DNA of 64,000 nucleotides from IMG/VR virus record IMGVR_UViG_3300025276_000027, positions 1 to 64,000 of that record; one strand, written 5' to 3'. The notes below the pieces were generated by a model. The model was not told the DNA's origin. It did not search any database and saw only the letters and a list, made by a program, of their open reading frames with translations. A program made the position numbers and the translations under genes. Shown one piece after another: positions 1,283-43,996 of the stretch. Source of the stretch: a virus. Within the stretch, counting starts at the first letter, position 1; every line of letters begins with the position of its first letter.

Positions 1283-1283
1283 A

Positions 1284-1424
1284 ATGAGTACAGAACAATC
1301 AAACGGAAACACCCAGTTAAATACAGAAAGAAATAAACTTAATAGTAGAGTCTCTAGATATAGAATGCTAGGGCAATCTAAAAAAGTAGTATGGGATGGT
1401 GCAAGAAGAAACAGAACAATTTAA
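1284..1424 (+). CDS. 46-aa basic hypothetical protein between nrdB and nrdA (below ORF-track cutoff)
   Basis: ATG 1 nt after the nrdB stop; MSTEQSNGNTQLNTERNKLNSRVSRYRMLGQSKKVVWDGARRNRTI*; fills the gap, ending 10 nt before nrdA. Confidence 0.65.
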   Translation: MSTEQSNGNTQLNTERNKLNSRVSRYRMLGQSKKVVWDGARRNRTI

Positions 1425-1434
1425 ATAAACCAAT

Positions 1435-19900: not shown

Positions 19901-22900
19901 AGAATTTTGATTTACAAAAGATGTACTATTTGCAGCAGGTATATCTATTGTAATGGTTTGACCTACTTGTTTAGAAGTATTTTTATCAAATAATTGTAAC
20001 TGCAATTTACCCCACGGAGAAACTTGCAATGAAATATTATAATCAGAATTACTTGAAATAAAAACTTTATCTGGTACAGTAGTATCATTGAAATCTCTAT
20101 TATAAGCTTCATCTTTTACTTTACCATCTTTATCTAGATTTTCCTTTTTTGTTTTCTGTGCACGCTCTACAAGATCAACAGCTAAAGAACCTCTTTGATC
20201 TTTAGTTAATGAACGTGCTTTTAAATTAATAGGTCTGTAAGATCCATCTGGTAATTGAACTATAGCCACATACCTATCTGAACCAGTTATTATATTATCC
20301 CACATCAAATCCTTTTGTAATCTGGACTTTATTTTATTATATAGTTTAACATTTTCTTCTGCTGTAGTAATATATTCTATTGTTCTTGACCCTTTTTTTC
20401 TCTTTAAATCAAATATAAAGTAGCTTCCATTTTCATCAGCATGCTCATAACGTAAATCTTTTAAAGATCTTGTATTACTATTATCAATAGATCTACCACC
20501 CTTTTGTGTTATAAAGTTTAAACCAAAAGGTAATTGATTTATTCCAATCACAGATTTTGGATTACTATCTGCATAAGCAAGTAACAATGCATTAAGTGCA
20601 AAATTATTTCTTACTAATTCTAAAGTTTGTTTTTGATCTAATGTAGCCTTAAGTTCAGGGCTTACAAAAATACTATTAAGAGCTTGTTCTCTTGACATAT
20701 TAGCTAAAGAAGTAACGTCTTTTATTTGTATGTTACCATTAGGAATATATGCAAATATCCCATCTGCATTATCTGTGATAGGTACACCATTATCTTTTAA
20801 TATTTTATTAATTCTATTTTTTATCTTCCCGTTAGGAATAGAAAGCCCTATGCTATACTTAGATTGTACTATAGTAACATATGGGTTTTGTTCTTTACCT
20901 TTTATAACATAATTTCCAATATTGTTACCACCCTCATTATTAACATTTATAACAAGTTCTAAAGTATTAATCTCTTCTTGAGTTAAATTATCTAGTATAA
21001 TATTTAATCTATCATCCGCACCTTCATAATCTCTTTTACCATTTTCATCTGTATTAGCATGTGGATATACTTTATTAATATCAGTTATATTTACTCTAGC
21101 TACATTTGACGGTAGCAGATCAAATTTTATTTCTTGTGTAGTATATGAATTTTTAAATTGACCAGATTGTAATGTTACAGGTTTGCCCTCAAAATTATTA
21201 GGAACTAAACGCAGGTTTCCTCCTTGTACAAATTTTGGTGTACTTATAACTCTATATTCTTTACCATCACTATCATAAACCAATTGTCCCTGAAATAACA
21301 TTACTCCATCAAAAGGAAAAGGAGTACTATCTGGAGCACGCTTATCTAACTTTCTCATACTTGCAATAGCAGTACCAGAATTATTAAATGCATTACGGGT
21401 AATTCCTATTTGTAATAATAATTCTGGAGATACATTATTTCCATTTTTATCAACTAATTTAAAAAATGCTTCAACTTCACCCTGAGAATTGAATGTTGTT
21501 ATTTTTAATACATCTACTATAGTCCCCTCCTGAAAAACTCTAGGTTTTGGTGGATTAGCAGGATCTATATTATCTTCATCATCTTCATTTGCAACTTTAG
21601 GTGTAACAAGAGTAGGATCAGATTTAACTGGCTCAGTATAATACATTTCATTTAATGGAATACCCGCTGCTTGAAGTATATCTCTTACTAAAGGATTTTC
21701 TAAAACCTCTCTGCTTCTCAACCATTGATCAAAACCTGCTTCTGCTTTTATGTCTGCATCTGATAACTCAGTAAATATAGGATTACCTTTAGCATCCATA
21801 ACAGGTAGCTTACCAGATATCCATAGTTTCTTTAATGCATTAAATGAATTTTGCCAGTTTAGACCTTCTGTATTTCTCCATTCCTCAAAAGTCTTAACTG
21901 TCTCACCAAGTACTGTCTGTGTTCCTGAATACTTTCTGTATTGTCTGTCCAATAATTTTTGTAATAATATACTATTATTTGCATCAGGTAATATAACATC
22001 TATATTTGCGTCTTCTAAAATTTCATCTTGATTATTTTTTGTCTCCTTTACTTCAACATCTTTACCCTTTTCTTCAGTTGTGTCTGTTGACTCATCAGTT
22101 TTTTCTGACATACTTCTGTACGTCTCAAGAAGTCTTTGGATTTGATCATACTTTACTTTATCTAAGTTAGGATCTATATCTCCCTGGTCATCATAAAAAT
22201 TCTTTAATTCATTTACATTACCAGAAATTAGAAACTTCTTAACTTGTTCAGGATCACCAACATAACCAGCTTCAAATAACTTATTCATTAATACATTAGC
22301 TTCTTTTATATTAATGTATTTTTCTATTTGTTGTTTATGTATTTTACTAAGGTTCTTATATATATTTTTATTAACCTCTATCTGTCTATCTACAATATCA
22401 CTAAGCCTTTGTGGATTATTTAAATACTCAATAGCTTTATCATATACTTTAGCTCTACCATTTAATGCTTTGTAATCTACTATTTCTTTAAGCGCATCTT
22501 GCATTTTTGATCTATCAACAAATGAATTAGTTGAATTTGCCATAAACTGCACATACTTTTCAAAAGCAGATGTTAATTTATTTATTTTTCTTCTATCAAA
22601 TGAACCATCCTTAGTTAGGTTTTTTGGATCATTTAATATTTTTTCAATAGCACTAAGATTTTTTATTTTGTTTGTTGCTTTTTCTATAGCTTTTTTTCCT
22701 TCACTTGTTTCTTTATCTTGAACTGCAATATCTTGTAGTAATAATCCTATTTCATTATTTATAGAGTCTATATCTAATAATACTGTAATATCATTAGCTG
22801 CCATTCCTTCAAATAATGGCTCATTACTCAACTTAGTATAAATACCAAGTTGTCTTTCTGTTGCACGTTTAAACCCGTCTTCAGTAAACATTTGAAGATA

Positions 22901-28547: not shown

Positions 28548-31500
28548 TTACATACCCATCTTTCCACTATAAAATGGAAATGATTTTGGTAACTTTTTTA
28601 TTTCTTTTCCTTTTTTAAGCTGTACATTTGATCCAGGATATCCAGGAATACCACGTTGTTGCATATCAGCTTGACCCTTTGTAGTTCCAATAGCAGGTAT
28701 ACTACTATTACCTAAAGATAAATACCTATCTAAAAAAGCAGCATCTATCTTTTGATCTGCCGGTAAATTCTTTCTTAGCTTAGTATATGCATTTAAAAAA
28801 GCTTCTTGTTGATCTACCTGATTTGATTTGTATAATTGCTGACCATTTTCAGTAAACTCTACATCACCATCCTCTTGTGGGTTAATATTATAATAAGGAT
28901 ATAATGTGTTTAAATTATTAGTAGTTGATGCATTAGTTATCATTGCATTAAAGAGTTCATTGTTTTTAGCAATTTTTTCATTGTCAAAATTTGTTTTATT
29001 TTGCAATGCTAACACTGTATCATCATATAAACCTTTGTCAATAGCCTTATTTCTCATATCTGTTTGTGCTTTCATTTGAGCATCCATAGATGCAGCACGG
29101 TTCATGAATTGAAGGTTTGTTCTGTTTGTTGTCTCCTGTGCTTGTGTTATAGCATTTAAACTTTTTCCTTGAACATTATTTCTTGCTATTGCTTGAGGAC
29201 CACCATAAGCGCCTAATGCATTTACCATAGTGTTTTGTGCTCCCATGATTGCATTAACTTTACCAGTATAATCATCTAATACATAATCAATTTTCTGTTC
29301 ATCAAGTTTAGGTGACCAAGGTAAATACAAATCATCTTGTATAGCTGCTAAAGCCATTAAGTTATTTTGATCTTGTCTCCATACTTCTTTTACAGGACCA
29401 GGTGTATTTTCTATCTCTGTAGTTGTAATCTTTTCTGGTTCTTTAGGTAAATCAATAAAGCCTTCTTGTTCTGCTACAAAGTCTACATCAAATCCAGGAG
29501 CATTAAATACTTTTGTTCCCGCTTTTCCATCAGCCTTAGATGCAGTTTCCCCACTTCCAAAATAAGATCTATACGGTGCACCTACTTTTTTATAGAATTT
29601 CTTTCTTTCTTCTTCATATAAATTTTGAAACTTTAACCATTGAGGGTCTTTCTTTCCTTTATTATAATCAAAGCCTTCTATTTTTGCAGCTATCTTACCA
29701 TTCCTTCTCATCCAATCTTCCTTGGCTGCATCTGATGCATATGCGTCTGAACCATACCAACTATCCTGATTACCTGTAGAATATTGTTTTACAGGTATTT
29801 TACCATCAGCGTACATCCCATAATCAAAATAACCTATATCTGATGAATTAATTACATCACCAGCACCCCTTTCATCATCACTATATATTGGATCTCCTAT
29901 TTCAGATGAACCAATTATATCTATTGATGTAGTATCTTCATTACCTTTTTTACCTTCAAAGTTAGAAGATGGTCCTTTATAATATCTTAATTTACCATCA
30001 TCAGTTACATTAAATGTAAACCCTTGAGATTGTTTTTGTTTAATAAGGTTATAGGTATCACTTCCTACTGGAAAATATGACAATGGATCACCACTATTAT
30101 TAGATGATGGTTTTTGTTTTATTTCTTCTATGTTATTATTAACTTCAGTTATTACTTCTTCAGACTGAGTATTATTAACGCTACTATAAGTTTCATTAAA
30201 TACTTCTTCTGTAATGCTTAAATCTCCAGTAGTATTCCTATTTTTATCATCAAACACATCATAATCTTCTATATTAACTAAAGCTTTACCATACATTTTA
30301 ATCTCATCATCAGATAAACCTTCTATAAATTCTGAACTTACTTCACCATCAAAATTTCTATGCATGTTACCTCTAATCATTCTATCAACATATGCAGCTC
30401 TATCAACAGGTTGCCCATTTATTTGATAGTTTGTATTACCGGTTAGTACTTGTGAACCATCTGATAAATTCATAACAGTATCAGATGCATTATTATTTTC
30501 TCCTACTGTTTCTTCTTCTGTTTCTAAACCTTCTTGTATTTGAGGTCTAACCAGTTTACCTTCACTATCAAAAGTAACTTGTTCTATTTCAACATATTCA
30601 CCATCTTTAAACTGATAACCTTGACCTGTGTTTTTATTTAGATAATACTTACCTTCTTCAGCTAGTCTAGTTGGAGGTATAAAATATGTACCAGGTTCAG
30701 TGTTAAGAACTCTGAAACGTGCATCTTCTTCATCTACTGTTTCATATACTATTTCTTCACCTGCTTGTGCTCTCTTTAAAAAGTCTGACATTTCATTACC
30801 AAACCTAGCCATAGGCATTATATCATTATTTGCTTGAGCAAGTTGCATTTGATTAGCAGAATCTATTGGTGGTGCTTGCATATTTTGTGGAGGCATAACT
30901 TCCTGTTGTTCAGATTGAGATATCATCTGCTGTAACATCCTTAACTGATCTTGTTCTTCTTGTGGTAATTTATCTATTGCATTTTGTTGAGCTTGCTGCA
31001 TAGATATTTGTTCAACACTAGCTGTAAACTCTAATGGATTTAAACCTTGAGATACTAAAAAAGGATGTGATGCTAAAGGAACACCATCCTCAAAATTCTT
31101 TTTTGCTTCTTGCATAAAAGATAATTTAGAAAGATCCTCCATGTTTTTCTTTAACATTAATTCAGCACTTCTAGAAGAAATGTTATCTGAAAATTGTGAA
31201 TTTAGTTCACCATAAAAATCATTTAATCCAAACTTTTTAGAAATTTTAGCTGGTGTCTTTTTAGATCCACCCATATCAAACTCAGCCATCTCATTTTTAG
31301 TAAATTTTAATTTAGGTGTATCAGAATAAATAAAAGACTGTTCAGGTAAAAACATAGGTACACCACCTTGTGAGTGTCTTGGACCTGTAATGTTATAAAG
31401 ACCAAAGTCTCCATTGTTATTTAAATCAGATAAAACTGTTTCTCCACCTTCAGCTTCTATATTAGCCTCATCTCTTGGAACACTAGATAAACTATGTCTA

Positions 31501-31688
31501 ACAGATTCATCATTTGTATTATTAAACATTGTTTGTCCATAATATTCTTGTGGGGTTGTTACCAAACCATAATCAGCTTGATCACCAGATCTTAAACTGC
31601 CACCATCTTGCATTACTTGATCTTCAACAACTTTGCCGTCAACAAGTTTAAATCCTTTTGGTAGTTTATTTATTTTAATCTTTGCCAT
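28548..31688 (-). CDS. Virion cargo protein (C1-like, 1046 aa)
   Basis: ANIEAEGGETV...GPRHSQGGVP domain recalled from crAss-like cargo proteins; Q/N-rich linkers; MQDGG and RAQAG motifs. Confidence 0.6.
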   Translation of the reverse strand: MAKIKINKLPKGFKLVDGKVVEDQVMQDGGSLRSGDQADYGLVTTPQEYYGQTMFNNTNDESVRHSLSSVPRDEANIEAEGGETVLSDLNNNGDFGLYNITGPRHSQGGVPMFLPEQSFIYSDTPKLKFTKNEMAEFDMGGSKKTPAKISKKFGLNDFYGELNSQFSDNISSRSAELMLKKNMEDLSKLSFMQEAKKNFEDGVPLASHPFLVSQGLNPLEFTASVEQISMQQAQQNAIDKLPQEEQDQLRMLQQMISQSEQQEVMPPQNMQAPPIDSANQMQLAQANNDIMPMARFGNEMSDFLKRAQAGEEIVYETVDEEDARFRVLNTEPGTYFIPPTRLAEEGKYYLNKNTGQGYQFKDGEYVEIEQVTFDSEGKLVRPQIQEGLETEEETVGENNNASDTVMNLSDGSQVLTGNTNYQINGQPVDRAAYVDRMIRGNMHRNFDGEVSSEFIEGLSDDEIKMYGKALVNIEDYDVFDDKNRNTTGDLSITEEVFNETYSSVNNTQSEEVITEVNNNIEEIKQKPSSNNSGDPLSYFPVGSDTYNLIKQKQSQGFTFNVTDDGKLRYYKGPSSNFEGKKGNEDTTSIDIIGSSEIGDPIYSDDERGAGDVINSSDIGYFDYGMYADGKIPVKQYSTGNQDSWYGSDAYASDAAKEDWMRRNGKIAAKIEGFDYNKGKKDPQWLKFQNLYEEERKKFYKKVGAPYRSYFGSGETASKADGKAGTKVFNAPGFDVDFVAEQEGFIDLPKEPEKITTTEIENTPGPVKEVWRQDQNNLMALAAIQDDLYLPWSPKLDEQKIDYVLDDYTGKVNAIMGAQNTMVNALGAYGGPQAIARNNVQGKSLNAITQAQETTNRTNLQFMNRAASMDAQMKAQTDMRNKAIDKGLYDDTVLALQNKTNFDNEKIAKNNELFNAMITNASTTNNLNTLYPYYNINPQEDGDVEFTENGQQLYKSNQVDQQEAFLNAYTKLRKNLPADQKIDAAFLDRYLSLGNSSIPAIGTTKGQADMQQRGIPGYPGSNVQLKKGKEIKKLPKSFPFYSGKMGM

Positions 31689-31690
31689 AA

Positions 31691-34600
31691 CTATAACATT
31701 TCTATATCAGCTCCCGCTGCAATTAATTTAGCTAACATTTTAGGATCTACATTTACTGTCTCTCCTCCTTTTTTTAACCCTTTCAATTTCATTGCTTGTC
31801 TAATACCAAATTTTGTTATTCCACTAGCATCATCATAAAAAGGTTGTTCATAAACATAATCTCTTACTTCTTCTTTATTTATACCTGATTCTTCTAAATA
31901 TTTTTTAATATCTCTTTTCTTAACGTTACTAAAGAAGTCTATACCTTCACTAATACTGCCAATATTCTGTGCTTCATTATAAATATTAATAATTTCTTCC
32001 TCACTTCCAGGAGATAAGTTAAGTAATTTTTGCATCATAGGATTAGCCATCATACCACTACCTAATACAGTTGCTAAATTAGAACTACCAGGTATTCCTC
32101 CCTGAGCTTTAGATAGTTCTCTTTGTATAACTTTATTTCTATTAGCTAAGTAAGCAGCCTCACCTCTTTCACCACCATATTCATTCTTTGGAAGCATCTT
32201 TAACTTAGATAAATTATCTTTTAAAGACATTTCAAGCGGCTCAATACCCATTGGTTCAAGAGTACTTATAGATTCAGGTGGTATAAAAAATTTACCAGAA
32301 TCTAATTCAGATTGTAAACCAGCTAATTTATCATTTAAATTATTTGTTGAGCCAACATATCTTGTTACTCTTAGTCCTGAATTAGGATCACTAGTATCTT
32401 GAATACCCTTTATTGCATTTAAAGATCTATAGTTAACACCACCATCTACTCTACCACCACTATTTTCCATCATTATAGGAGAACCACTTTCATCATAATC
32501 TCCAGTAAATATCATTGTGTGAGCATTTCCCTCTCCACCAGAAGTACTATAATTAGATACAATTCTATCACCCGGTTGTAAATCTGAATATCCAGCATCC
32601 ATCAATTGCATTTGTAATCCACCTCTATTATTTTCAATCATACCATTTAATTGACTGTTACCAGAAATAATTGGAATTGGTTTGCCATCAGCAGTTGTTG
32701 CACCTGCTGATCTCATTATACCACAACCATAACTTGTACACCCATAACCAGCAGTTGTACCACTTTTTAACCAATTTCTAGTTACTGAAGGTACGGTATC
32801 TAACCCAGATACCTTGTCTCCATACTCGTCCACACTTACATCAAATATAGAACGTTTAATAGTACTATCATCTCCTAGTATCTCTGTTAGTTGCTTTTGA
32901 ATTTCTTCATCATTTTCTCCTTCTTTACTAGTTATAAGTCCACGGTATATTTTATCAATGTTTGATTGATAGCTTAAAAGTCTTTCTTGTTCTGTAGTAA
33001 GCTGACCTTGTGTTGCTGCAATCTCTGCTTCAATCATTGCTTTAGTTCTACGATTATTTAGAGGCGTTTCACCTTTCACTTGATATTCTTCTAAATCACC
33101 TGTAAAAAGTTTTAATGGATTAAATGGATTACCACCCATTTGCATTCTTTTCTGAAAATTGTCTAACTCAAAGTTTTCAGACTGTGATGGTAATTGCATT
33201 AGTTGTGAATTATTAAATAATCTAGTAACTAACATTTTATCATATGAAGAATCTTTCTTAAAGTTTGGTAATTGAAAATCTACTGATTGTTCTGCTAAAG
33301 ATGTTAAGAATTCATACTGTGGAGTCATTGGTACAAACTCTATTTCATTAGCTCCTGTAATAGCATCTAATTGTGCTTTAGTTGGCATACCTGGTATCTG
33401 TTGTCCAGGAACACCCCCACGTTGCATGTTTTGTAATATGTTTGCTTGTGCTTCTGGGGGCAATGCTTTAAATCCAGCATTATTTGTACCACCACCATAC
33501 TTTGATAGTTGAGTATATCCAGTTACTTTATCTGCTTCAGGATATAGACCGCTGTTAATATCAGGGCCTTTACCTCTTTTAAATAAAGGATCGGTTGAAG
33601 TAGCATATGTGTTATCCGCATTTAAGTTGTTTAAAAAATTAATTGCTCTATCATCATCAATCTCATCTTCTAAATAATCATTAACGTTACTTGCTGCTCT
33701 TACTGCAAAAGAACTACCTCTTTTTGCAGCTTTTGCAAACGCTGTATCTGGGAATCTAGATATTCCTCCTAGTATACCACCTGAATCAATATCTATACTT
33801 GGAAAGTTTATATTACCAAATAATGAATCAGCACTCTCTTGATCTTCATCTTCACCTGTTTCCAAAACACTAAAAGTATTTACATATGCTTCATACTCTT
33901 GTGGTGCATTAGCACCAGTTCTCCTAACAGTATCTTGCATAACCCACTCTTTAAAAGTTAATGGTTGCCCACCATTTTGAGCCATGGGTATTGAACTAAA
34001 ACCAGGAGTGTTAATTATAGCATCATATGTACTTTGTGCTGATGTACCTAATTTACTAAGATTTTCCTTAAGCCAATCTTTGCCTTTATTTAGTTTGCTA
34101 TTTATATCATTCTGATTAATCTGCACCTTATCTTTAAGGTTAGGTAAATTACCTCCGTTTGGATTTTCTATATTATATTGTGTTAAATAATCATTTACAG
34201 CCTTTACATTTTCTTCTGAATCATCTACATTTATATTATAAACTGAATTAGCATATTTATTTGCTTGATTAGCTGCAGCATCTGCTGCTAAAGTATCAGG
34301 AGCACTTTGTATACCAGTAAATAATTCTCCTGCTAAACCAACTGCTTCACCAAAAGACCATCTTTTTCCACTATGAAACATATTAGGTGAAACATAAAAA
34401 GGATTTGTAACATCACCATTATCTACTTTTACCTCTTCTTTATTTATTACATCTCCCTTATTATTTTTTATAACAGTATTACCTTTGTTAGCAAATTGAT
34501 TAGCTAAATCAAGTATTTCTTGGCCTGTTTCTGCTTTATCAGTATAGCCAGCTTCTTCAAGTCTAAGTTGTGTTTCTATATCCTTAGCTCTTATCTTTCT

Positions 34601-35614
34601 TTTACCCTTATACATAAAGCGTGGTTCAAACGCACCACCTGCTTTAAATTGAAGTTCTTCAGATTCAGGAGGAAATAATGGTTTATCTTTTTTTGATGGA
34701 TTTATTAAAGGTAAATTTTTATAAACTTGTTTTAAAGAATCCACCTCAGATTGTCTAGGATATATATTGTCACTAAACATATTATTATCTTTGTCTTCCC
34801 ATTCACGCTTAAGGTTTTGTGCATTCCTCCAATTTTGATATTGTGTTGGAAATTGTTGTTCTTTACTTGCGTTATTTTGATTTATTATATTTTGTTCAGC
34901 ATCAGTATTACCAAATTGATTTACTGCAGGTGAAGAACCACCTTGTTGTTTAAATCTTGGATCTAAAGTGTACTTTCTATTAGGGGCATTATAAGAACCT
35001 TCTCTTTGTCTTACTCCTTCTGTATAGCCTGTTCCTCCACCTTCTTGTTTTTTAAACTTAGCAGCATTCTTTGCAAAATTAGCCATCTTAACTATAGATG
35101 GGGGGTATCTATCTTTATTAGACATAACCTTCCTAGCTGCTTCTTGAACGCTCATACCACGTGCCTTAGCCCATGCTGTAAACTTACCTTTATTTTCAGG
35201 TTTAATCTCTATCCCAGATTTAGCCATTTCAACAGGATCTATATTTATATCTAATCCTTCTTGTCCTTCTTGTATGTCTTGTTGTCTTGCTAACTGTTGA
35301 GGGTCTTGATTTATTTGTTGAGGTGTTGGATCAGCAGGTTGTTGTTGTTGTTGAATATTTTGAAATAAAAGTTCTAGATCTTTCTCTTGATAACCTATTG
35401 CCATAAGTGCTTGTACAATAGTATTTTGATCTACTTCTTGTTCAATTAACCCCATTACAACTTCTTCAGGTTTACCTCCTTGGTCAATGGATTCTTTAAA
35501 AAACATGCTAATTTGTTGAATAGCAGGATCAACCTTTGGTTGTTGTTGCATACCAGGTTGTTGAGGAATCATTTGTCCACCTTGCTGTTTTACACTTTTT
35601 TTGTTTAAATCCAT
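31691..35614 (-). CDS. Modular virion cargo protein with NlpC/P60-like cysteine peptidase domain (1307 aa)
   Basis: GYGCTSYGC...LQPGDRIV...AHTMIFTG...MMENSGG (Cys 32738-32740, His 32519-32521); basic IEIKPENKGKFT...ANFAKNA module; about 14 x-[QAK]-x-G(G) motifs. Confidence 0.7.
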   Translation of the reverse strand: MDLNKKSVKQQGGQMIPQQPGMQQQPKVDPAIQQISMFFKESIDQGGKPEEVVMGLIEQEVDQNTIVQALMAIGYQEKDLELLFQNIQQQQQPADPTPQQINQDPQQLARQQDIQEGQEGLDINIDPVEMAKSGIEIKPENKGKFTAWAKARGMSVQEAARKVMSNKDRYPPSIVKMANFAKNAAKFKKQEGGGTGYTEGVRQREGSYNAPNRKYTLDPRFKQQGGSSPAVNQFGNTDAEQNIINQNNASKEQQFPTQYQNWRNAQNLKREWEDKDNNMFSDNIYPRQSEVDSLKQVYKNLPLINPSKKDKPLFPPESEELQFKAGGAFEPRFMYKGKRKIRAKDIETQLRLEEAGYTDKAETGQEILDLANQFANKGNTVIKNNKGDVINKEEVKVDNGDVTNPFYVSPNMFHSGKRWSFGEAVGLAGELFTGIQSAPDTLAADAAANQANKYANSVYNINVDDSEENVKAVNDYLTQYNIENPNGGNLPNLKDKVQINQNDINSKLNKGKDWLKENLSKLGTSAQSTYDAIINTPGFSSIPMAQNGGQPLTFKEWVMQDTVRRTGANAPQEYEAYVNTFSVLETGEDEDQESADSLFGNINFPSIDIDSGGILGGISRFPDTAFAKAAKRGSSFAVRAASNVNDYLEDEIDDDRAINFLNNLNADNTYATSTDPLFKRGKGPDINSGLYPEADKVTGYTQLSKYGGGTNNAGFKALPPEAQANILQNMQRGGVPGQQIPGMPTKAQLDAITGANEIEFVPMTPQYEFLTSLAEQSVDFQLPNFKKDSSYDKMLVTRLFNNSQLMQLPSQSENFELDNFQKRMQMGGNPFNPLKLFTGDLEEYQVKGETPLNNRRTKAMIEAEIAATQGQLTTEQERLLSYQSNIDKIYRGLITSKEGENDEEIQKQLTEILGDDSTIKRSIFDVSVDEYGDKVSGLDTVPSVTRNWLKSGTTAGYGCTSYGCGIMRSAGATTADGKPIPIISGNSQLNGMIENNRGGLQMQLMDAGYSDLQPGDRIVSNYSTSGGEGNAHTMIFTGDYDESGSPIMMENSGGRVDGGVNYRSLNAIKGIQDTSDPNSGLRVTRYVGSTNNLNDKLAGLQSELDSGKFFIPPESISTLEPMGIEPLEMSLKDNLSKLKMLPKNEYGGERGEAAYLANRNKVIQRELSKAQGGIPGSSNLATVLGSGMMANPMMQKLLNLSPGSEEEIINIYNEAQNIGSISEGIDFFSNVKKRDIKKYLEESGINKEEVRDYVYEQPFYDDASGITKFGIRQAMKLKGLKKGGETVNVDPKMLAKLIAAGADIEML

Positions 35615-35633
35615 TTCACTAATATTATATTAT

Positions 35634-35644
35634 TAATATACAAA
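35634..35644 (-). promoter_or_regulatory. Putative late promoter motif TTTGTATATTA
   Basis: TAATATACAAA on +, about 20 nt upstream of the 35614 start; recurs in several intergenic gaps. Confidence 0.55.
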
Positions 35645-35675
35645 TTCTCTAGGAGATTTGCTAATCTTTAAAGGT

Positions 35676-37643
35676 TTAAGAGTTTGAAATTATATAAGAT
35701 GCAATAAAATTAGTAACACCAATTCCACGTTCTTTTGCATCTTTATAATACATTCTATTTAGTTTATCATATACTTTTTTAGCATACTGACTTTCATCTT
35801 CTCCATTTATATAATTCATGTATGTTTTACTTACATCTTCAGTTGATCCTCCATCTTGTTGAATTTGTATAAATCCATTACGTTGAATTTGTGGTGAAAA
35901 TTCTTCGGGAGGATCTGGTGCAAATACTTTACCATCTGCAAATACTCCTGATTTATATTTTTCTACTAATTTATTAATTGTATCTTTTTCATTTAAATTT
36001 TGATTCCCAACTAATGATCCTACATAATTATTATATATATCTTGTAGTGACTCTTTGCCTTTTATTGACCAAGGGCGTTCATCTTTTCCAATAGTTACTG
36101 CTTCATGACCTATTCCAGCTAAATTTGAACCAATAAACCCTGCTGCATTATCAACACCAAAAAAATCTAATACACCACCTACATAAGGAATATCTCTTAC
36201 TTTTTGTTGTAGAACTTTAGATGTTTTTGCAGAAGATGATGAATGTCTTAATGGATCCATTCCTTCATTTATTAAATCTTTTGTTTCTTGATATATAGGA
36301 TTTGCCACATTCCAATCTGCTTGTTGTTTTCTAAGTGCAACAACTCTTTTATCCATTTCAAAGTCCCTTCCCCTTTTCAAACCATTATCATAATCTTTAT
36401 CTCTATATTCTTGATAAATAGTAGCAATCTGGTTTTCTATATTTTCATCAAAATCATGAAATGTTTTCATTTGATCTTCTGAGAGTATTTGGCCAATATT
36501 ATTTATTTTACCCATACTATAACCTAACCACTCATTTACATCTTTTTCTGCATCTCTTAATGAATAATCATATGAACTACCTTTTTGTCCATCTAAGTTT
36601 ATACTATCTTGAGCTTTAGGTAATGTTTTAACTTTACCGTTCTTAGTTCTAGCATATCTATTTGATTCTGTTTCCATGCTAGGAATAAGTGAACCTGAAT
36701 ATGATTTACCTTTCCATTTCCAACTTACTGAGCCACCTCCTTTTTTCTTTTGAATATATTTTCCTGAATCTTTATCTTTTTCTACATATATTCTATCATA
36801 TATTTCAAAAGGTTTAGTTAAACCTAATTTCTCACCAAAGTTTATATTACCACCTAAACCTCCGGCTTGGTCAAACTTATCATAATAAGATATATACATA
36901 CCATTTTCATCTTCCCCAAATCCTGTAAAATAATTACCAATAGCATTTAATTGGTGATCATCAATATCATTTACTTCTTTATAGCCTGTAACTTTATAAT
37001 TATTTTTATCTAGTTGTTTTTCATTATCATTTACATCCAGTATTAAATCAGGTTTAGTTTCATTGGTATAAAAATTTCCATTACTAACTCTATTATAATT
37101 ATCTATAACTTCTTGAACAAGTTGTTGATTTTTATTTAGTGATATATATTTAGCATCTGGATCTTTTGCTTTTGTAGGTTTAGTATTACTAACTTGAAGA
37201 ATATTATCTTCTAATGGTCTACCAGAATAGTATCTATATAAGTCAGCCAATCTACTGTTATGATGTTGATGATTTGCAAAATCTCCTGCAGCTAAAGCAC
37301 TTAAAAAAGGAATACCTTTAAAATCTCTAAATTCTCCATTACCTCCCTGTGCCATAGGTATTTCAAGTACTTGATCTCCTGGAAAACTATAATTTGTACC
37401 AGGTGTCATTACTTCTTTATTGCCTAAATTATCTATACCAAGTAAAGGTCCTTTTTTTAATGGGCTACCATCATTTTCACTCATGCTAATATTACCTGAC
37501 TCAATAAGATTAACTGAATTGTTTTTATCAGGACTATCATATCTATATCCCTCAACAGAAGCAATACCTGTAACATATGTTATATCTTCATTAGGTCCTC
37601 CGGGTAATCCACGGCTTTTTATGTAATTAAAATCTTCTCTCAT
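35676..37643 (-). CDS. Modular virion cargo protein with DUF6973-like domain (655 aa)
   Basis: Segments separated by MAQGG, KKKGGG, KAQD and QQDGG; DPLRH...GHE...DIYNNYVG motif; start overlaps the muzzle stop by 1 nt. Confidence 0.55.
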   Translation of the reverse strand: MREDFNYIKSRGLPGGPNEDITYVTGIASVEGYRYDSPDKNNSVNLIESGNISMSENDGSPLKKGPLLGIDNLGNKEVMTPGTNYSFPGDQVLEIPMAQGGNGEFRDFKGIPFLSALAAGDFANHQHHNSRLADLYRYYSGRPLEDNILQVSNTKPTKAKDPDAKYISLNKNQQLVQEVIDNYNRVSNGNFYTNETKPDLILDVNDNEKQLDKNNYKVTGYKEVNDIDDHQLNAIGNYFTGFGEDENGMYISYYDKFDQAGGLGGNINFGEKLGLTKPFEIYDRIYVEKDKDSGKYIQKKKGGGSVSWKWKGKSYSGSLIPSMETESNRYARTKNGKVKTLPKAQDSINLDGQKGSSYDYSLRDAEKDVNEWLGYSMGKINNIGQILSEDQMKTFHDFDENIENQIATIYQEYRDKDYDNGLKRGRDFEMDKRVVALRKQQADWNVANPIYQETKDLINEGMDPLRHSSSSAKTSKVLQQKVRDIPYVGGVLDFFGVDNAAGFIGSNLAGIGHEAVTIGKDERPWSIKGKESLQDIYNNYVGSLVGNQNLNEKDTINKLVEKYKSGVFADGKVFAPDPPEEFSPQIQRNGFIQIQQDGGSTEDVSKTYMNYINGEDESQYAKKVYDKLNRMYYKDAKERGIGVTNFIASYIISNS

Positions 37644-40600
37644 TACCTCATTGATAATTGTAGTTTAGTATTGTTTAATCTTAATAGCATTTTTCTATTA
37701 TCACCACCTTTAGTTATTGATCTATTTTTTCTCAATATAACATGATTTGAATAATGTCTAAATTTCTTACGTTGTGTTGCAGATTTTTGATAATTTAAAT
37801 TAATAGGATTTAATGGTCTTATATACCCGTTACAATCAGTATTAAATATAGATTGTTCAGCATTAGTAAATTCACCTCTATCATTAGTAATATCCCAAAA
37901 TTGATTAAACCTAAATTTATGCTCCACCTTTGAAACTTCTATATTAATATCATCAGTACCTATACTTGGATATTGTAAATTACCCCAAGGATCATTATAC
38001 AATGCATTATTTAAAAGTAATAAACCAGATGTTTGATCATTATTATATACAATAGCTGCATCAAAATTATAATCTAAATCCTCCCATTTATCACCACCAC
38101 ACATGTTATATTGTGGATCTCCTTTGTATACATATGTTTCTAATTGATATTCAAAACTTCTTACAGTATTAACTGCTTGTCCTGTATTAGATATTAAATC
38201 TATTTCCCATGGATAATTAATATTATAAAAATTGGCATATGAATCACATCTTATATTATGTCTCCAGAATCCACCTACTTCAAAATTTGGTTGTGTACTC
38301 TCAAAAAAGAAATAATTACATCTTCTTGGATCTGGTTGTATAAATGCAGGATCTCCTATTTGATATATTAAAGGTGCTGAATCTGGACATGTACCAACAG
38401 CAGTCACAACTGTACCAGGAATTGTTACAGGTGGACAAGAGCAAGTTACCTTTTTACATATTGGTTGAAGTACATCATTACACTCACCTGATGACTCTGT
38501 ATAATTAAATGTTGTTGGATTAGGATAAACTATTGTATAACCTGCAGGACATGCACAAACAAAATCTGTTCCACATACTGATCCACCAATTGCTGTTGCA
38601 ACAGGCGTTATAGTAGTTGGGTCTGCAGCATTAATTCCAAATTGATATGGATCAACATTTACAGGACCAGAAGTCATTGATATATGACCTAACACATCAG
38701 CATCAGTAGGTGCAGAATTAGTAGCACCACAAAATATTGCATATAAAAATTGGTTTGCAGGTCCAAATCCAGTTCCAACTGTATTAGATTGATATGGTCC
38801 ACCCACTACACCTGGGTCAGTTGTTGTATCAGTAACAAATAATATTACTCTTCTATAGTTTGCGTTACCACTTCTATCACCTAATTCAGAAGCATTTGCA
38901 GCATTTAGTACACCTACAGCACCATTTAATCCAGCAACAACTTCAGTACCTGGATAACTACCCCAGTTATCATCATACCATTGATCTACATATGCTATAT
39001 TAATATTAGAAGACATACTAAAATTACCACCAGCACCATTTGGAAGAGGCACTGTTTCACTTCCAACTCCCCATTGAGTAAAACCAATTTGCATTTGATC
39101 ATTATTCATAAAAGTTTGAATTTGAGGATCATTTAAAAAACCATTTAAAAGAGCCAATTGTGCTCCTCTTCTTCCTGCCCGATCAGTACTACCTGATGTA
39201 TCCATAGCAAATACTACATCAACTAAACAATTTGTAGGCCCACCAGTTACTACTCCATCAGTAATAATATCTACTAATACTGTAGCATCTTTAGTTTCAT
39301 TATTTGCTATTTCACATAGTTCTGTAACAGGATTATAAGTATATCCAGGAGGACATTGTGGTATAGTAGTAGTTAAAGTTTTTGTAGTAAAGAAATGATT
39401 AATACTTGGTAAAGCTAACTCAGGATGCCAGTCATGAAAAGATATCCATGCTTTAACCTTTGGATCATAACTTATAGTCCATGAACAATCATCAAAGTAA
39501 AGCGGATCTCCTATATCTATTGGAGCTGAAATACCTGTTAATGTATTAATAGTAATTGGCTTAATATCTCTATCTATAAATGTAGCTGTACTAATAAATT
39601 CTGGTTTAAGTTGGTAATCTTTCTTCATAAAATAAACAAGATCATCAACAGAATCATACATGACTTGACAACCAACACCAAATACGGGGTTATCTGTCCA
39701 CACTGAAGTTTCTGAATTTGGAAATTGTTTTATAAATCTTGATGGTAAATACTTAGCAAACCACCATTTCATGCCTGCATTAGATATAGGGCTGAGCCCT
39801 TTACCACCGTATTGAAATATTTTACCTTGTTGTTGTGATATAAAAAATAAACCTACTGGTGTATTTATTACACCTCTTATACTTTCACATGATCCAAACT
39901 CAGTTGATATATCTGCATTAGCTACATTTTGAAATGGTTGACTAAATAATCCACCATCACCAATAGTTAATTTAGTATCTAATTGAGTTTTTAAAGTATC
40001 TAATCCTTGGAACATCTGTGGTGACAAATGTGGGAAAAATATTAGTGCACCACTTTTATTTATAGGTTTAATTACACTAACATCATTTTTAAAATCTTTA
40101 TAATTATTATTTAAAAACACTCTCCAAAAATCTTTTCTGGATTCTTCTTGTGCTTGTAAAGAATATATAAGTCTCTTTGGATATGATACAAAACAATTTT
40201 CTGCAACTAATGGATCATAATACGTAGGTTGTACTTGACCAAAAGAAGTTAATTGCGTAGCAAATTTAGAAGGACTTAATGACTCATCATATTTATAAAA
40301 ATTACCTTCTTTTTCTATTTTTGCATGAAAGAGTTCATCAATATCATTATAGTCATATACATTGTATATTCTTTTTGCAGGCTCATCTTTCCATTCTCTT
40401 TGGGTTAAATTTATTTCTGTTTCAACAAAGAAATCCGTTATGCCATTTACATGAGTATACATATATGCATACTCCATATTAAATGCAGGATTAGGATCAG
40501 ATGAATTAAATATTGCAGCAAATCCAGATGAACATGAATCATTACCTCTATCTAAATAAAATAAATCATTTGGTATTAAGTTATCTAGAGCACTTGTATT

Positions 40601-43600
40601 AACAATTGATAAAGAAGCTATCTCTGAAGCTAGTGGGGTAATATCATATCTTTGTGAGTTTAACCAAAATCTTGGATATGGTATATTTACATACAATGAA
40701 TAATTATATGTAAAGTCATCAGGTTGTCCTAATAAATAATTTGTAAATATAGGCATGATAACTTTTTCAGTATATCTACATATAAATGTATCACCAGCAA
40801 AAATAGGATCACTACTATATAAATACTCATCCGGTTTAGTTGAATCTAAAAGTTCAACACAACCTCTAAGTTGTACTTGTTTTATTCCAGCAAGTTGACC
40901 ATATTGATTATCAAAGTTAAATTTAAGAGCTCCGTATTTAGCGGATATATTTGTTTTTCTTGTTTGTCTTGGATCTAATAAATATTGATCACTAAATTCA
41001 TTTACAACAGATTGATCTACATTAGTAAATTCACCATCTGCATTTAAATTTAATGACATGTCTCCACCAATTACATATCTTGATTCATCAATTACAGATG
41101 GATCTCTAAGAGGATTTTCTAGACTTACAGCTACTGTCTCAGGTCTAAATAAATTATTTATTTTATATTGTCCACTATCAAATGTTTGGAATGAAGCACC
41201 TATATAATTAGATGCGTTATTTTTAATTCTCCATAAACCATTTGTTTGATTTGAAAAATCTGAAAAGAAACCTAAAGAATTATGTTTCCAAACAAAATCT
41301 GAATGATTAATCATATTATAAAACAGATCAATAATTTCATTTCCCCCTATAGCTATATTTGCTTGTAAAGTAAATATACTTGTAAGTGTTCTAAATACCT
41401 GTGGTAAGTTTGTTTCAGATGAATCTCTATCTCTGTTAGTTTCCAAGGCACCTGAATTAACACCAGGAATTCTTCCTTTTAATCCTTCTGCTGTTGTTGC
41501 AGCTTTTTCAGTTATAGCCGTAGCTAATCCACCAGTATATAAATCTACTATTCCACCTAAAGTATCTAGCAAAATACTTATTACTGTACTAGTTGTTGCT
41601 GAAGTAGTAGTAGCTGCACCTGCGGCTGCTACATATGCTGTTTGTTTAGAAGCCCACGGTTGTTTCCAATCACCACCTCTTATTGCTCCACCAGATCTAC
41701 CATTTAAGTTTACAGTAGCAACACCAGGTGGTACGGTTAGAGAAATAAATCCTCCACCACCACCTTGTGCATCACCATCAATTTCTTCCCCTATTCCAGA
41801 CTGACTAGTTAAATTACCAGTTGAATAAGTTTGTTTACGGGAAGTTGTTCCTTTTAGTTTATGACAGGCATAACCAAAACCTATGATAGCTCCAATCCAT
41901 GCACCACCACCTCTTAATAATTTAAATTGCGGATGATCTTCTGATGGTTTAAAAAACCCAGATGCTGCTCCACTTACCTCTCCATATATTCTAGATTCAT
42001 ATGCATTTAAGAAAGGTTGAGTAAACATTAAATCTGGTGAGTGAAATGTAAATACTTTTCTTGAAAATCCTGTTGGCTCACCATCTACATCAACTCTATC
42101 ACCTAAAGGCTTAAAATAATCACAAGACTCTTGAAAAGTATTACAGCCATCTGTTCTATTTAAAGCATCACCATTTATACCATCATGAAAATATACATCT
42201 GGTCTCAAATCATTATAAGGATAGTTAGGATATAACCCCTGTACATCTCCACCTATTAAGTTTTCAGTATCAGGAATAGTATACTTACGCATATTTTTAA
42301 ATAAACCTTTTGCCAATATAGACTTTGCTCCTAATCTTGATCCTTTTAATATTTCATAACCAACAACATTTTGAATAAATGAACCATCATTATATTTTGG
42401 ACGTGCTATATTATCAAATTGTACACCAAGGATGTTTATTAAATCTCCTGATGTATTACTTATATTTAATGGTGAACCAATAGATTCATCCGGCATCTTA
42501 TGATGCCTTATTGGAACACCACATAAGTCTCCCCATATATCTGGTCTATTTGATGGATATCTTTCAGTAGATTCCCAATATCCCATCTTCCCTTTTGCTA
42601 TTATATTAGTACCATCCCCAAGTGGTTCAGAAGCTACTGAAGTTATTGATGCAGTATTATAAACTTTAAATAAAGGGTCTCCAGAAGAATCTAATACATT
42701 TGAACCAAATATATCTGCATTTTCTAATTCTATTGAACCATTCGGTAATGTATAATTTTGTGGAGCTCTACCTGGTATATGATATGAGGATGATCTTTCT
42801 CCAGTGTTATATATCCATCTTATAAAAAATGCATATTGTTCATCTCTCAAGAAATTCATTTTATTACCCCCTTTAGAATAATAATCATCTTGAACACTAT
42901 TAATACACCAATTTACTTGAATGTTATTAGCATCTGGTTGATAGTTAAAATCAAATTGTTCGGTTGGTCCTTGTCTTATTAACCAATCATTCACAACAAA
43001 CATTGATTCAGATTTTTCATATGCAGGACTACGTAAAGGTATTTGTACTAAATCTATAGCTATTAATGATTCATCTATATAATCAATATTAATATTCTTT
43101 TGTTGTGTGTTATAAATCCCTAATCTTTTTGCAGATGTTTGTCCCTGGTTTCTTCTAAGTATTACTAATTCATAAAATTCATAATCTTTATCTAAATTTG
43201 AAATAGATATATCAAGTGAACCGGCTGTACCATCAATATTCCATAATGTTTGAATATTAGATATACCTATATAGTCAGTTACTTTAATTTCATTTTCAGT
43301 ATATGCAATAAATGCTTGATATGCTCCATTAGCTAACATACCACCATCAGTTGCTTTACTTAATGCAACACATGGTGTATCAACTAATGGTGCTAATCTA
43401 ATTTGTTCACAATCTAATCGTTTAGGTTGTTGATCTTCATATACAACACATGGGTCACCATCAATATCTGGCCCCGATATCTGTATTTGTTTATATGGTA
43501 TTTTATCTATATTTAATGCTCTTGATGGATTGTTACCATCATCCCAATATACTTCCCAAGTACAATCAAAGTTTTCTTTTGCTGCACCGGTAATTAAATA

Positions 43601-43996
43601 CTTTCTATTAAAACTTAAACAAGTGTCATTAACTAATGTAGTATATTTACATTGGCTATCATCAAATGTTCCTATTTCTGAATTAATATCATCTGTAGAA
43701 TATATTATCCATTCATCACCATATCTATGTATAGCTCCAATAACTGTATATGGTATTACACCACATTGTAAATTTGATGGCTCATTACCTACAACACCTA
43801 AGTCTCCATCTAAAGAATTGTTTACTAAATTTCGTGCATGCCACCATGATTGGTTACTTTCCAAAGATGGAGTAATATCCTTATTCATTCCTTTACTAAA
43901 GGAATTTGTTTGTATAGATGAACTGCTTTGGGATCTAGGACTTCTCCTGGATCCCTTACGGTTACTATTAGAAGAAGAGTTTCTCTTTTTAGCCAT
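37643..43996 (-). CDS. Tail muzzle/stabilisation protein (P22 gp10-like) with inserted vWA and Cys-rich domains
   Basis: N-terminal NSFSKGMNKD...ARN; RDEQYAFFIRW; C-terminal WTISYD...WISFHDWHP; follows the tubular protein; VDVVFAMDTSGST MIDAS at about 39190-39225. Confidence 0.8.
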   Translation of the reverse strand: MAKKRNSSSNSNRKGSRRSPRSQSSSSIQTNSFSKGMNKDITPSLESNQSWWHARNLVNNSLDGDLGVVGNEPSNLQCGVIPYTVIGAIHRYGDEWIIYSTDDINSEIGTFDDSQCKYTTLVNDTCLSFNRKYLITGAAKENFDCTWEVYWDDGNNPSRALNIDKIPYKQIQISGPDIDGDPCVVYEDQQPKRLDCEQIRLAPLVDTPCVALSKATDGGMLANGAYQAFIAYTENEIKVTDYIGISNIQTLWNIDGTAGSLDISISNLDKDYEFYELVILRRNQGQTSAKRLGIYNTQQKNINIDYIDESLIAIDLVQIPLRSPAYEKSESMFVVNDWLIRQGPTEQFDFNYQPDANNIQVNWCINSVQDDYYSKGGNKMNFLRDEQYAFFIRWIYNTGERSSSYHIPGRAPQNYTLPNGSIELENADIFGSNVLDSSGDPLFKVYNTASITSVASEPLGDGTNIIAKGKMGYWESTERYPSNRPDIWGDLCGVPIRHHKMPDESIGSPLNISNTSGDLINILGVQFDNIARPKYNDGSFIQNVVGYEILKGSRLGAKSILAKGLFKNMRKYTIPDTENLIGGDVQGLYPNYPYNDLRPDVYFHDGINGDALNRTDGCNTFQESCDYFKPLGDRVDVDGEPTGFSRKVFTFHSPDLMFTQPFLNAYESRIYGEVSGAASGFFKPSEDHPQFKLLRGGGAWIGAIIGFGYACHKLKGTTSRKQTYSTGNLTSQSGIGEEIDGDAQGGGGGFISLTVPPGVATVNLNGRSGGAIRGGDWKQPWASKQTAYVAAAGAATTTSATTSTVISILLDTLGGIVDLYTGGLATAITEKAATTAEGLKGRIPGVNSGALETNRDRDSSETNLPQVFRTLTSIFTLQANIAIGGNEIIDLFYNMINHSDFVWKHNSLGFFSDFSNQTNGLWRIKNNASNYIGASFQTFDSGQYKINNLFRPETVAVSLENPLRDPSVIDESRYVIGGDMSLNLNADGEFTNVDQSVVNEFSDQYLLDPRQTRKTNISAKYGALKFNFDNQYGQLAGIKQVQLRGCVELLDSTKPDEYLYSSDPIFAGDTFICRYTEKVIMPIFTNYLLGQPDDFTYNYSLYVNIPYPRFWLNSQRYDITPLASEIASLSIVNTSALDNLIPNDLFYLDRGNDSCSSGFAAIFNSSDPNPAFNMEYAYMYTHVNGITDFFVETEINLTQREWKDEPAKRIYNVYDYNDIDELFHAKIEKEGNFYKYDESLSPSKFATQLTSFGQVQPTYYDPLVAENCFVSYPKRLIYSLQAQEESRKDFWRVFLNNNYKDFKNDVSVIKPINKSGALIFFPHLSPQMFQGLDTLKTQLDTKLTIGDGGLFSQPFQNVANADISTEFGSCESIRGVINTPVGLFFISQQQGKIFQYGGKGLSPISNAGMKWWFAKYLPSRFIKQFPNSETSVWTDNPVFGVGCQVMYDSVDDLVYFMKKDYQLKPEFISTATFIDRDIKPITINTLTGISAPIDIGDPLYFDDCSWTISYDPKVKAWISFHDWHPELALPSINHFFTTKTLTTTIPQCPPGYTYNPVTELCEIANNETKDATVLVDIITDGVVTGGPTNCLVDVVFAMDTSGSTDRAGRRGAQLALLNGFLNDPQIQTFMNNDQMQIGFTQWGVGSETVPLPNGAGGNFSMSSNINIAYVDQWYDDNWGSYPGTEVVAGLNGAVGVLNAANASELGDRSGNANYRRVILFVTDTTTDPGVVGGPYQSNTVGTGFGPANQFLYAIFCGATNSAPTDADVLGHISMTSGPVNVDPYQFGINAADPTTITPVATAIGGSVCGTDFVCACPAGYTIVYPNPTTFNYTESSGECNDVLQPICKKVTCSCPPVTIPGTVVTAVGTCPDSAPLIYQIGDPAFIQPDPRRCNYFFFESTQPNFEVGGFWRHNIRCDSYANFYNINYPWEIDLISNTGQAVNTVRSFEYQLETYVYKGDPQYNMCGGDKWEDLDYNFDAAIVYNNDQTSGLLLLNNALYNDPWGNLQYPSIGTDDINIEVSKVEHKFRFNQFWDITNDRGEFTNAEQSIFNTDCNGYIRPLNPINLNYQKSATQRKKFRHYSNHVILRKNRSITKGGDNRKMLLRLNNTKLQLSMR

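Follow-up and report, generated by a model that had tools for sequence, protein, structure and literature searches.

Podovirus ejection proteins (gp16 of T7; gp7, gp16 and gp20 of P22) reside in the head, leave it ahead of the DNA and must cross the tail unfolded; one of them carries a peptidoglycan hydrolase. In crAss001, the gene for the muzzle protein gp44 is followed by those for the cargo proteins gp45 (C1) and gp46 (C2) and for the RNA-polymerase-related giants (PMC10172136). Polyvalent proteins of phages and conjugative elements unite many unrelated domains in a single chain believed to accompany the DNA, and their domain content is rapidly shuffled (PMC5512222). Here we analyze a stretch of 64,000 nucleotides (hereafter, the window; positions 1 to 64,000 of IMG/VR record IMGVR_UViG_3300025276_000027), in which three consecutive genes of an uncultured marine crAss-like podovirus, denoted P0001, P0002 and P0003, encode chains of swappable cassettes drawn from a shared pool and bounded by a short, Gly-Gly-ended junction peptide, which we call the seam. 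The crAss001 cargo proteins and the polyvalent proteins are the closest concepts already known; for the recurrent junction peptide, we found no published description.

The source contig is 77.8 kb of viral DNA, 64 kb of which make up the window, with a GC content of ~31% and a CheckV completeness of 68%. The virion genes form one long minus-strand block, with the terminase, portal and major capsid genes just past the window edge and the tail genes and a 2117-amino-acid muzzle-like protein inside the window. The latter protein matches 'virion structural' PHROGs as well as large structural proteins of Cellulophaga phi4:1, of Flavobacterium FPSV phages and of an epsilon crAss-like phage. The open reading frames (ORFs) that follow its gene encode, in this order, 655, 1307, 1046, 1081, 4775 and 1890 amino acids, the first three being those in question:

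37643..43996, minus strand: 2117-amino-acid muzzle-like virion protein, which fixes the position of the cargo genes (compare crAss001 gp44-gp46)
35676..37643, minus strand: P0002, 655-amino-acid cargo protein, the first gene past the muzzle
31691..35614, minus strand: P0001, 1307-amino-acid cargo protein with 12 modules bounded by GG
28548..31688, minus strand: P0003, 1046-amino-acid cargo protein

Given that this gene order mirrors that of crAss001, P0001-P0003 are in the cargo position, directly past the muzzle gene, in agreement with the sequence-only reading of the window, which had called them cargo proteins. This position, together with one gp45-like module, suggests that the three proteins are probably packed in the particle and injected. 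Like gp45 and gp46, they are large and mostly unmodelled or disordered; unlike in crAss001, there are three mosaic genes rather than two, and one of the cassettes has a CHAP-like fold. With the ejection proteins of T7 and P22, they would share head packing, unfolded passage through the tail and a wall-degrading domain, but there is no sequence relation to T7 gp16 or to P22 gp7, gp16 and gp20, and those proteins have neither cassette arrays nor a recurrent junction peptide. P0001-P0003 resemble polyvalent proteins in having several unrelated domains in one chain and shuffled architectures; they differ in that no LPD, MPTase or other signature domain was detected past the Pfam thresholds and in that the payloads that can be named are directed against the cell wall, not against nucleic acids or restriction. 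No Pfam or NCBIfam family was found in any of the three proteins, lax thresholds included. The clade to which this phage belongs is abundant and widespread in marine samples, with its cargo genes detected in sequencing runs from 10 studies.

The junction peptide and the modules that it borders

The motif strings listed in the sequence-only reading, with the general form x-[QAK]-x-GG, are all found in the three ORFs as stated. Tested against composition-preserving shuffles (n = 500), Gly-Gly occurs 21 times in P0001 vs 10.5 expected (P = 0.004), [QAK]-x-GG 10 times vs 2.3 expected and [MK]-Q-x-GG 5 times vs 0.08 expected, the latter two counts being reached in 0 of the 500 shuffles. In P0002, there are 5 [QAK]-x-GG sites vs 1.1 expected (P = 0.004). 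The enrichment that had been anticipated is thus present in these two proteins and absent from P0003 (3 sites vs 1.3 expected, P = 0.15), the few sites of which are still conserved. The neighboring proteins of 1081, 2117 and 4775 amino acids are unenriched by the same test, and a stricter pattern, applied to the whole contig, falls mostly in P0001 (9 sites) and P0002 (3 sites). Short N-terminal leaders closed by GG (residues 13, 16 and 30) are confined, among the large virion proteins, to P0001-P0003.

A logo of 156 non-redundant sites shows K or M at -3, Q or K at -2, Q, Y or E at -1, and E or G at +1. More fully, the consensus reads [I/L]-P-[K/M]-A-Q-x-G-G, K-Q-x-GG or M-Q-x-GG, with the LPKAQxGG form recurring, and the P0002 family independently gives the same picture. 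The spacing between Gln and GG varies (KAQGG, MAQNGG, KAQYGG), and in the P0002 family, the second Gly of the motif is often lost. Because the Gly codons at the motif sites vary among GGT, GGA and GGG, it is the peptide that is under constraint rather than an element in the DNA; the possibility of a DNA element or an internal start (for example, GGAGG) was rejected on the same grounds. No description of the motif was found in the literature on crassvirus cargo and proteolysis or on phage ejection proteins and Gly-Gly or polyproteins. The crAss001 paper describes neither a seam motif nor cassette exchange (PMC10172136), and the text of the polyvalent-protein paper, in which neither 'glycine' nor 'linker' occurs, appears not to describe a delimiting junction motif (PMC5512222).

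More than 300 relatives of P0001 were found in marine metagenomes, the longest of their contigs reaching ~119 kb. Splitting the protein at every GG yields 12 modules, each of which we searched for in 123 relatives that look complete. The seams and modules, from the N to the C terminus, are as follows (module positions are residues of P0001):

35576..35590, minus strand: KQQGG, which closes the 13-residue N-terminal leader (module 1-13), present in 103 of the 123 relatives
Residues 14-193: core module, in 123 of 123 relatives
35213..35227, minus strand: MAKSG, a degenerate seam that precedes the 'IEIKxxNKGKFTA' helical module; AKDGG is at the equivalent site of crAss001 gp45
35033..35050, minus strand: KQEGGG seam; high-scoring segment pairs (HSPs) end at residue 193 and start at 194
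34937..34951, minus strand: KQQGG seam, which ends the 33-residue cassette 194-226 (19 of 123 relatives); near the C end in other relatives
34634..34648, minus strand: FKAGG seam, which ends cassette 227-327 (0 of 123 relatives)
34523..34537, minus strand: KAETG, a degenerate seam that reads PKAQxGG in relatives
Residues 328-549: module in 113 of 123 relatives
33968..33982, minus strand: AQNGG (IPMAQNGG) seam
Residues 550-708: module in 117 of 123 relatives
33488..33505, minus strand: SKYGGG seam, with 23 HSP ends at 708/709
33413..33427, minus strand: MQRGG seam, with 19 HSP ends at 734
Residues 709-734: module in 90 of 123 relatives
33131..33145, minus strand: MQMGG seam, which ends cassette 735-828 (18 of 123 relatives, a tandem duplicate in 9; also in the 1046-residue family)
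32171..33130, minus strand: cassette 829-1148, predicted long helix and CHAP/NlpC-P60-like papain fold, ending in NEYGG (23 of 123 relatives)
32096..32110, minus strand: KAQGG seam, with 14 HSP ends at 1173
Residues 1149-1173: module in 71 of 123 relatives
Residues 1174-1284: module in 29 of 123 relatives
31763..31777, minus strand: LKKGG seam, which precedes the tail peptide
31694..31762, minus strand: 23-residue C-terminal tail peptide (1285-1307), past the last GG, in 123 of 123 relatives

Thus, the core of P0001 consists of residues 14-193 and the last 23 residues, the remaining modules being optional cassettes, and the presence or absence of the 12 modules across the relatives is independent of one another. 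The N-terminal and C-terminal seams are invariant or nearly so, the degenerate MAKSG and KAETG match canonical GG sites in relatives or in gp45, and the tail peptide is a candidate anchoring or loading peptide. Cassette 227-327 (window 34634-34936, minus strand; 101 amino acids) is Gln/Asn-rich and appears unique to this phage.

The borders between conserved and exchanged parts coincide with the seams. Of the 109 distinct BLAST breakpoints taken from 119 relatives of P0001, 20 lie within 2 residues of 10 motif sites vs 4.1 expected, a count reached in 0 of 5000 trials. The commonest HSP ends (193, 226, 708/709, 734 and 1173) are each the last Gly of a motif, HSP starts pile up at 194, 1147 and 1281, and alignments that extend to the end of a module nearly always meet a GG in the relative as well. 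Marine contigs from other studies join at residues 194, 222, 226, 707 and 1281 of P0001 and 103 and 348 of P0002; these joints are in assemblies of relatives and so are evidence of the same kind, and with less than 95% likeness and short sides, they are weak alone.

The same arrangement is seen in the other two proteins. P0002 has 1315 relatives of 127 to 2305 amino acids (scored against 1.84 billion representatives), and combines a conserved N-terminal module (1-101, ending in PMAQGG) and a conserved C-terminal module that starts from QQDGG at residue 595 with a variable middle. In P0003, the N-terminal ~300 residues, with a leader ending in VMQDGG, are strongly conserved, the middle is variable and the C-terminal part is conserved. 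The seams of the two proteins, with the P0002 HSP ends counted against the best 150 representatives, are:

37341..37355, minus strand: MAQGG of P0002, with the consensus E-[IL]-P-M-A-Q-x-G(G) in relatives and 73 HSP ends at residues 100-104
36732..36749, minus strand: KKKGGG seam of P0002, with a pile of HSP ends at ~300-309
36606..36617, minus strand: KAQD, a degenerate LPKAQ seam of P0002, with 16 HSP ends at 345-349
35847..35861, minus strand: QQDGG of P0002, which opens the conserved C-terminal module, with a pile of HSP ends at 590-609
31599..31613, minus strand: MQDGG of P0003, which closes the 30-residue leader; M26, G29 and G30 are invariant in 30 relatives
30759..30809, minus strand: ARFG and RAQAG of P0003, degenerate seams at the end of the conserved N-terminal part, with HSP ends at 300 and 312

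Where P0003 has ARFG and RAQAG, its relatives read EARFGGN and KKAQGGN. LKKG and YQVKG, which had also been proposed as module boundaries, find no support in that role.

Cassettes also move between the three families and are GG-ended in each case. The P0002 cassette 299-348 (from KKKGGG to KAQD) recurs in proteins of the P0001 family with 78% identity, the KGKFTA module and the CHAP cassette of P0001 are also found in P0002-family proteins, and the 707-828 region of P0001 in P0003-family proteins. In a complete relative with a 90%-identical portal, the CHAP cassette is in the upstream neighboring gene, and the P0001 orthologue is only 707 amino acids long. At least 598 IMG/VR contigs match the portal, with 74-95% identity among the 80 best, whereas the cargo genes a few kb away are mosaic, so that the mosaicism is specific to the cargo genes. 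When free-standing cassettes were sought among shorter matches, mainly shorter family members and fragments were found; P0211 (90 amino acids) looks truncated. The view of these genes as expandable, motif-delimited arrays is therefore borne out by the HSP breakpoints, the independent modules, the tandem duplicate and the cassettes common to the three families, and gain and loss of modules in orthologues, proposed as a check, indeed breaks at the last Gly of the motif.

The seam might be a joint of pure recombination, that is, a neutral linker left at splices and kept because Gly-rich disordered junctions are tolerated. The breakpoints and contig joints at seams, the movement of cassettes between genes and the location of the seams in predicted disorder (see below) are all consistent with such a joint, but we consider it quite improbable because the peptide consensus is kept over deep divergence while the codons vary; because G29 and G30 of P0003 and the terminal seams of P0001 are invariant or nearly so, even without visible exchange; and because 15 nucleotides of degenerate DNA are too short to guide homologous recombination.

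Contents and predicted structure of the cassettes

The AlphaFold model of P0001 residues 828-1163 consists of a long helix and a compact domain, with a mean predicted local distance difference test (pLDDT) score of 74 for the whole model; in the compact domain, most 10-residue blocks score 74-96, with dips to 55-68. In a VIA-align comparison, the top ~28 rows were all CHAP or NlpC/P60 structures, with 109-156 residues aligned and Z scores of 6.8-9.3, of which values of 7-9 are only moderately above the background of the tool. Two residues, the Cys in GCTSYGC and the His in AHTM, do not vary among 23 sequences. With a consistent match list and the catalytic pair present, the assignment of cassette 829-1148 to a CHAP/NlpC-P60-like peptidase fold is reasonable, in line with the NlpC/P60 peptidase that had been proposed from the sequence. 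No Pfam family, CHAP and NLPC_P60 profiles included, matched the cassette even at E<=10, and a Foldseek search of the model against the PDB gave no match at E<=0.001.

Longer relatives of P0002 (P0349, P0347, P0396, P0413 and P0456 are the domain-bearing ones) carry LysM, in up to three copies, and YkuD (L,D-transpeptidase fold), and a SET domain was detected in one P0002 relative just above the cut-off (24.4 bits). An L,D-transpeptidase fold is unusual in an injected phage protein. Given that the nameable cassettes are CHAP, LysM and YkuD, the payloads point at the cell wall and not at anti-defence. The predicted opening of the cell wall accordingly appears plausible, and anti-defence or host-takeover payloads, also predicted, gain no support beyond the single SET match.

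The rest of P0001 is modelled mostly with low confidence (mean pLDDT 52 for residues 1-830). Three islands in this part are confident: residues 30-95, a helical bundle that looks UBA-like by eye, the KGKFTA module (140-187) and a hairpin with a helix (330-360). All eight seams of residues 1-830 are located in or at the edge of stretches with pLDDT <50, several of them directly after a helix. The basic helical module of the sequence-only reading was recovered, with pLDDT of ~90, and is common to crAss001 gp45; its SH3/Tudor-like hairpin came out as only a predicted beta-hairpin plus helix. For the supposed DUF6973-like domain (PF22322), there was no Pfam match in P0002 or 10 relatives, which leaves a language-model lead in which the second match is a cluster with DUF6973 in 27% of its members (score 0.89). 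Zincins had been said to be encoded next door, and the HEAFH region of the 4775-amino-acid protein matched nothing in Pfam or the PDB. Within that ORF (10907-25234, minus strand), residues ~2200-2560 around HEAFH resemble LPD23/LPD1 clusters by language model (score 0.90-0.91), which is only a lead to this giant being polyvalent-protein-like.

Surrounding genes and kinship with other crassvirus cargo

Residues 125-184 of P0001 match residues 364-420 of crAss001 gp45 (E=1e-5), and the same ~60-residue helical module matches genes at the cargo position of other gut Crassvirales, including cr127_1 and cr108_1. GG is enriched also in gp45, cr127 gp46 and cr108 gp056, in the contexts A[FY]GG, AKYGG and MAKGG, which suggests that the seam is general to this class of proteins, with clade-specific flavors. 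The ordered segments of gp45 are flanked by x-[FY]-GG; the marine motif, [KM][QA]xGG or LPKAQxGG, differs from the A[FY]GG of gp45. The crAss_CARG1 family (PF25725) had no match at E<=10 in the 77.8-kb record and none at E<=1 in three complete relatives, and P0001-P0003 are therefore not assigned to it. The N-terminal domain of P0003 was considered as a counterpart of the portal-binding domain of gp45 and rejected (hhalign probability 0.1, nothing in BLAST, no PF25725 match).

The comparison with gp45 bears on the possibility that the seams, or the leader and tail peptides adjoining them, form a loading or docking code, binding a repeated site on the portal, ring, muzzle or scaffold; the storage and release of the chain would then depend on how many seams it has and in what order. 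Repeated short motifs in a disordered chain, as found here, are typical of multivalent binding. Segments of gp45 bind the 12-fold portal and the ring proteins (PMC10172136), with GG flanks at 209-210, 263-265, 427-428 and 562-563; in all three marine proteins, it is the end modules that are conserved; and a very conserved portal contrasts with a mosaic cargo. Such a code nevertheless appears improbable, given that the crAss_CARG1 portal-binding domain is undetectable here and that the number of motifs varies freely with cassette content, which would be odd for a fixed set of binding sites. A complex prediction with portal residues 1-830 and the 165 N-terminal residues of P0003 scored 0.00, which is no verdict and counts neither way.

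Several other genes of this phage are of note. Where the virion block ends, genes for the small and large subunits of ribonucleotide reductase run in the opposite direction (window 302-3060, plus strand). Within the tail block, a 406-amino-acid ORF (46266-47486, minus strand) matches the 'DNA repair exonuclease' PHROG 704 (E=8e-38), an odd site for an SbcD-like phosphoesterase. A 736-amino-acid ORF (48213-50423, minus strand) contains an fn3 domain and a weak VWA match. The Gly-rich 1998-amino-acid ORF (50884-56880, minus strand) is likely to encode a fiber or receptor-binding protein because it contains a BppL_N (lower baseplate protein) motif at residues 1407-1430. Beyond the window, at contig positions 76431-77349, there are four tandem tiny, very basic ORFs (96, 80, 63 and 63 amino acids), among which one ends with ...YKANGGGY... 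and one has a match to phrog_7595 and a weak match to a 'minor head protein and DNA pilot' PHROG.

Uncut joint or cutting site

The sequence-only reading had proposed either docking inside the capsid or cutting at the motif. In the latter case, the cargo genes would be true polyproteins, the seams of which are cut past Gly-Gly in the head or after ejection by an unrecognized family of phage protease or by a host or autocatalytic activity. If so, the leaders, 23-40-residue peptides and enzymes would be released in the particle or in the host envelope. The motif resembles the sites of GG-directed proteases (adenain, ASFV (African swine fever virus) pS273R, Ulp/SENP and the C39 leader peptidases), sharing with those of the clan CE enzymes (adenovirus protease and pS273R) and C39 a short GG-ended consensus that has a hydrophobic residue slightly further upstream. 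Each of the three proteins has a short GG-ended leader, which the other large virion proteins lack, the 23-33-residue cassettes are too small for domains, and cr127 gp46 itself starts with the KGKFTA module, which in other proteins is preceded by GG. Parts of gp45 are found in the capsid and in the tail, 420 Å apart (PMC10172136), for which fragments would be the simpler account. Autoprocessing of packaged polyvalent proteins has been proposed by Iyer et al. 2017 (PMC5512222).

Nevertheless, we regard cutting as unlikely. Pfam scans found no peptidase family in the cargo block, and MPTase-PolyVal, S78, S77, ClpP, C39 (PF03412) and C48 (PF02902) were all absent from three complete 113-118-kb relatives, in a search that had no positive control for S77 and did not include adenain (PF00770) among its families. 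The sole papain-like domain has the CHAP/NlpC-P60 fold and is optional (23 of 123 relatives). The motif differs from the clan CE and C39 sites in register, and its variable Gln-GG spacing and the frequent loss of the second Gly in the 655-residue family make it loose for a protease site. Furthermore, one gp45 seam lies inside a continuously modelled segment: residues 425-552 are modelled on the portal in crAss001, in a paper that reports no cleavage (PMC10172136), and by our numbering of the RefSeq protein, this segment starts with A425-F-G-G-W429. Because the segment includes AFGGW, the GG-W bond appears intact.

We therefore favor, at about an even chance, a seam that is an uncut joint, a hinge or helix cap and possibly a docking handle, in mosaic ejection proteins; both its staying uncut and its role as a hinge or in docking are what we infer. 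Several points weigh against this. The case for uncut seams draws on a single seam, that of a gut phage only distantly related, and on a published residue range rather than on inspected coordinates. A novel or host protease would be compatible with the absence of known protease families, and the 13-33-residue cassettes, conserved leaders and universal tail peptide also fit the logic of a propeptide or polyprotein. A plain hinge would not need a conserved Gln/Lys and the LPKAQ extension. Finally, tblastn searches with P0001 and P0002 found no relative among cultured phages.

Under the favored interpretation, the three genes would encode internal cargo (ejection) proteins in which conserved end modules enclose a middle assembled from a pool of small cassettes (13 to ~320 amino acids), each closing with a hydrophobic residue or Lys, then Gln, Lys or Ala, then any residue, then Gly-Gly. 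The seam would be a flexible, helix-terminating joint within a largely disordered chain, one that permits cassettes to be gained, lost, duplicated or transferred among the three genes with their neighbors unharmed, and within the particle it may double as a docking handle that recurs along the chain. Packed in extended form, the chains would thread through the tail when the phage infects; their action on the cell envelope would come from the putative CHAP/NlpC-P60 peptidase in this phage and from the LysM and L,D-transpeptidase-fold cassettes in its relatives.

Crassviruses, which stow and inject megadaltons of protein, are among the most abundant gut phages, and these data show that their relatives are also widespread in marine waters. 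The small chance that the seams are cut by an unrecognized protease would, if realized, also account for the gp45 parts 420 Å apart. The junction peptide provides a rule for parsing otherwise unannotatable giant proteins into units and accounts for the extreme mosaicism of the cargo beside a nearly invariant portal. The seams also offer a precise experimental handle on whether crassvirus cargo is threaded as whole chains or delivered as processed pieces.

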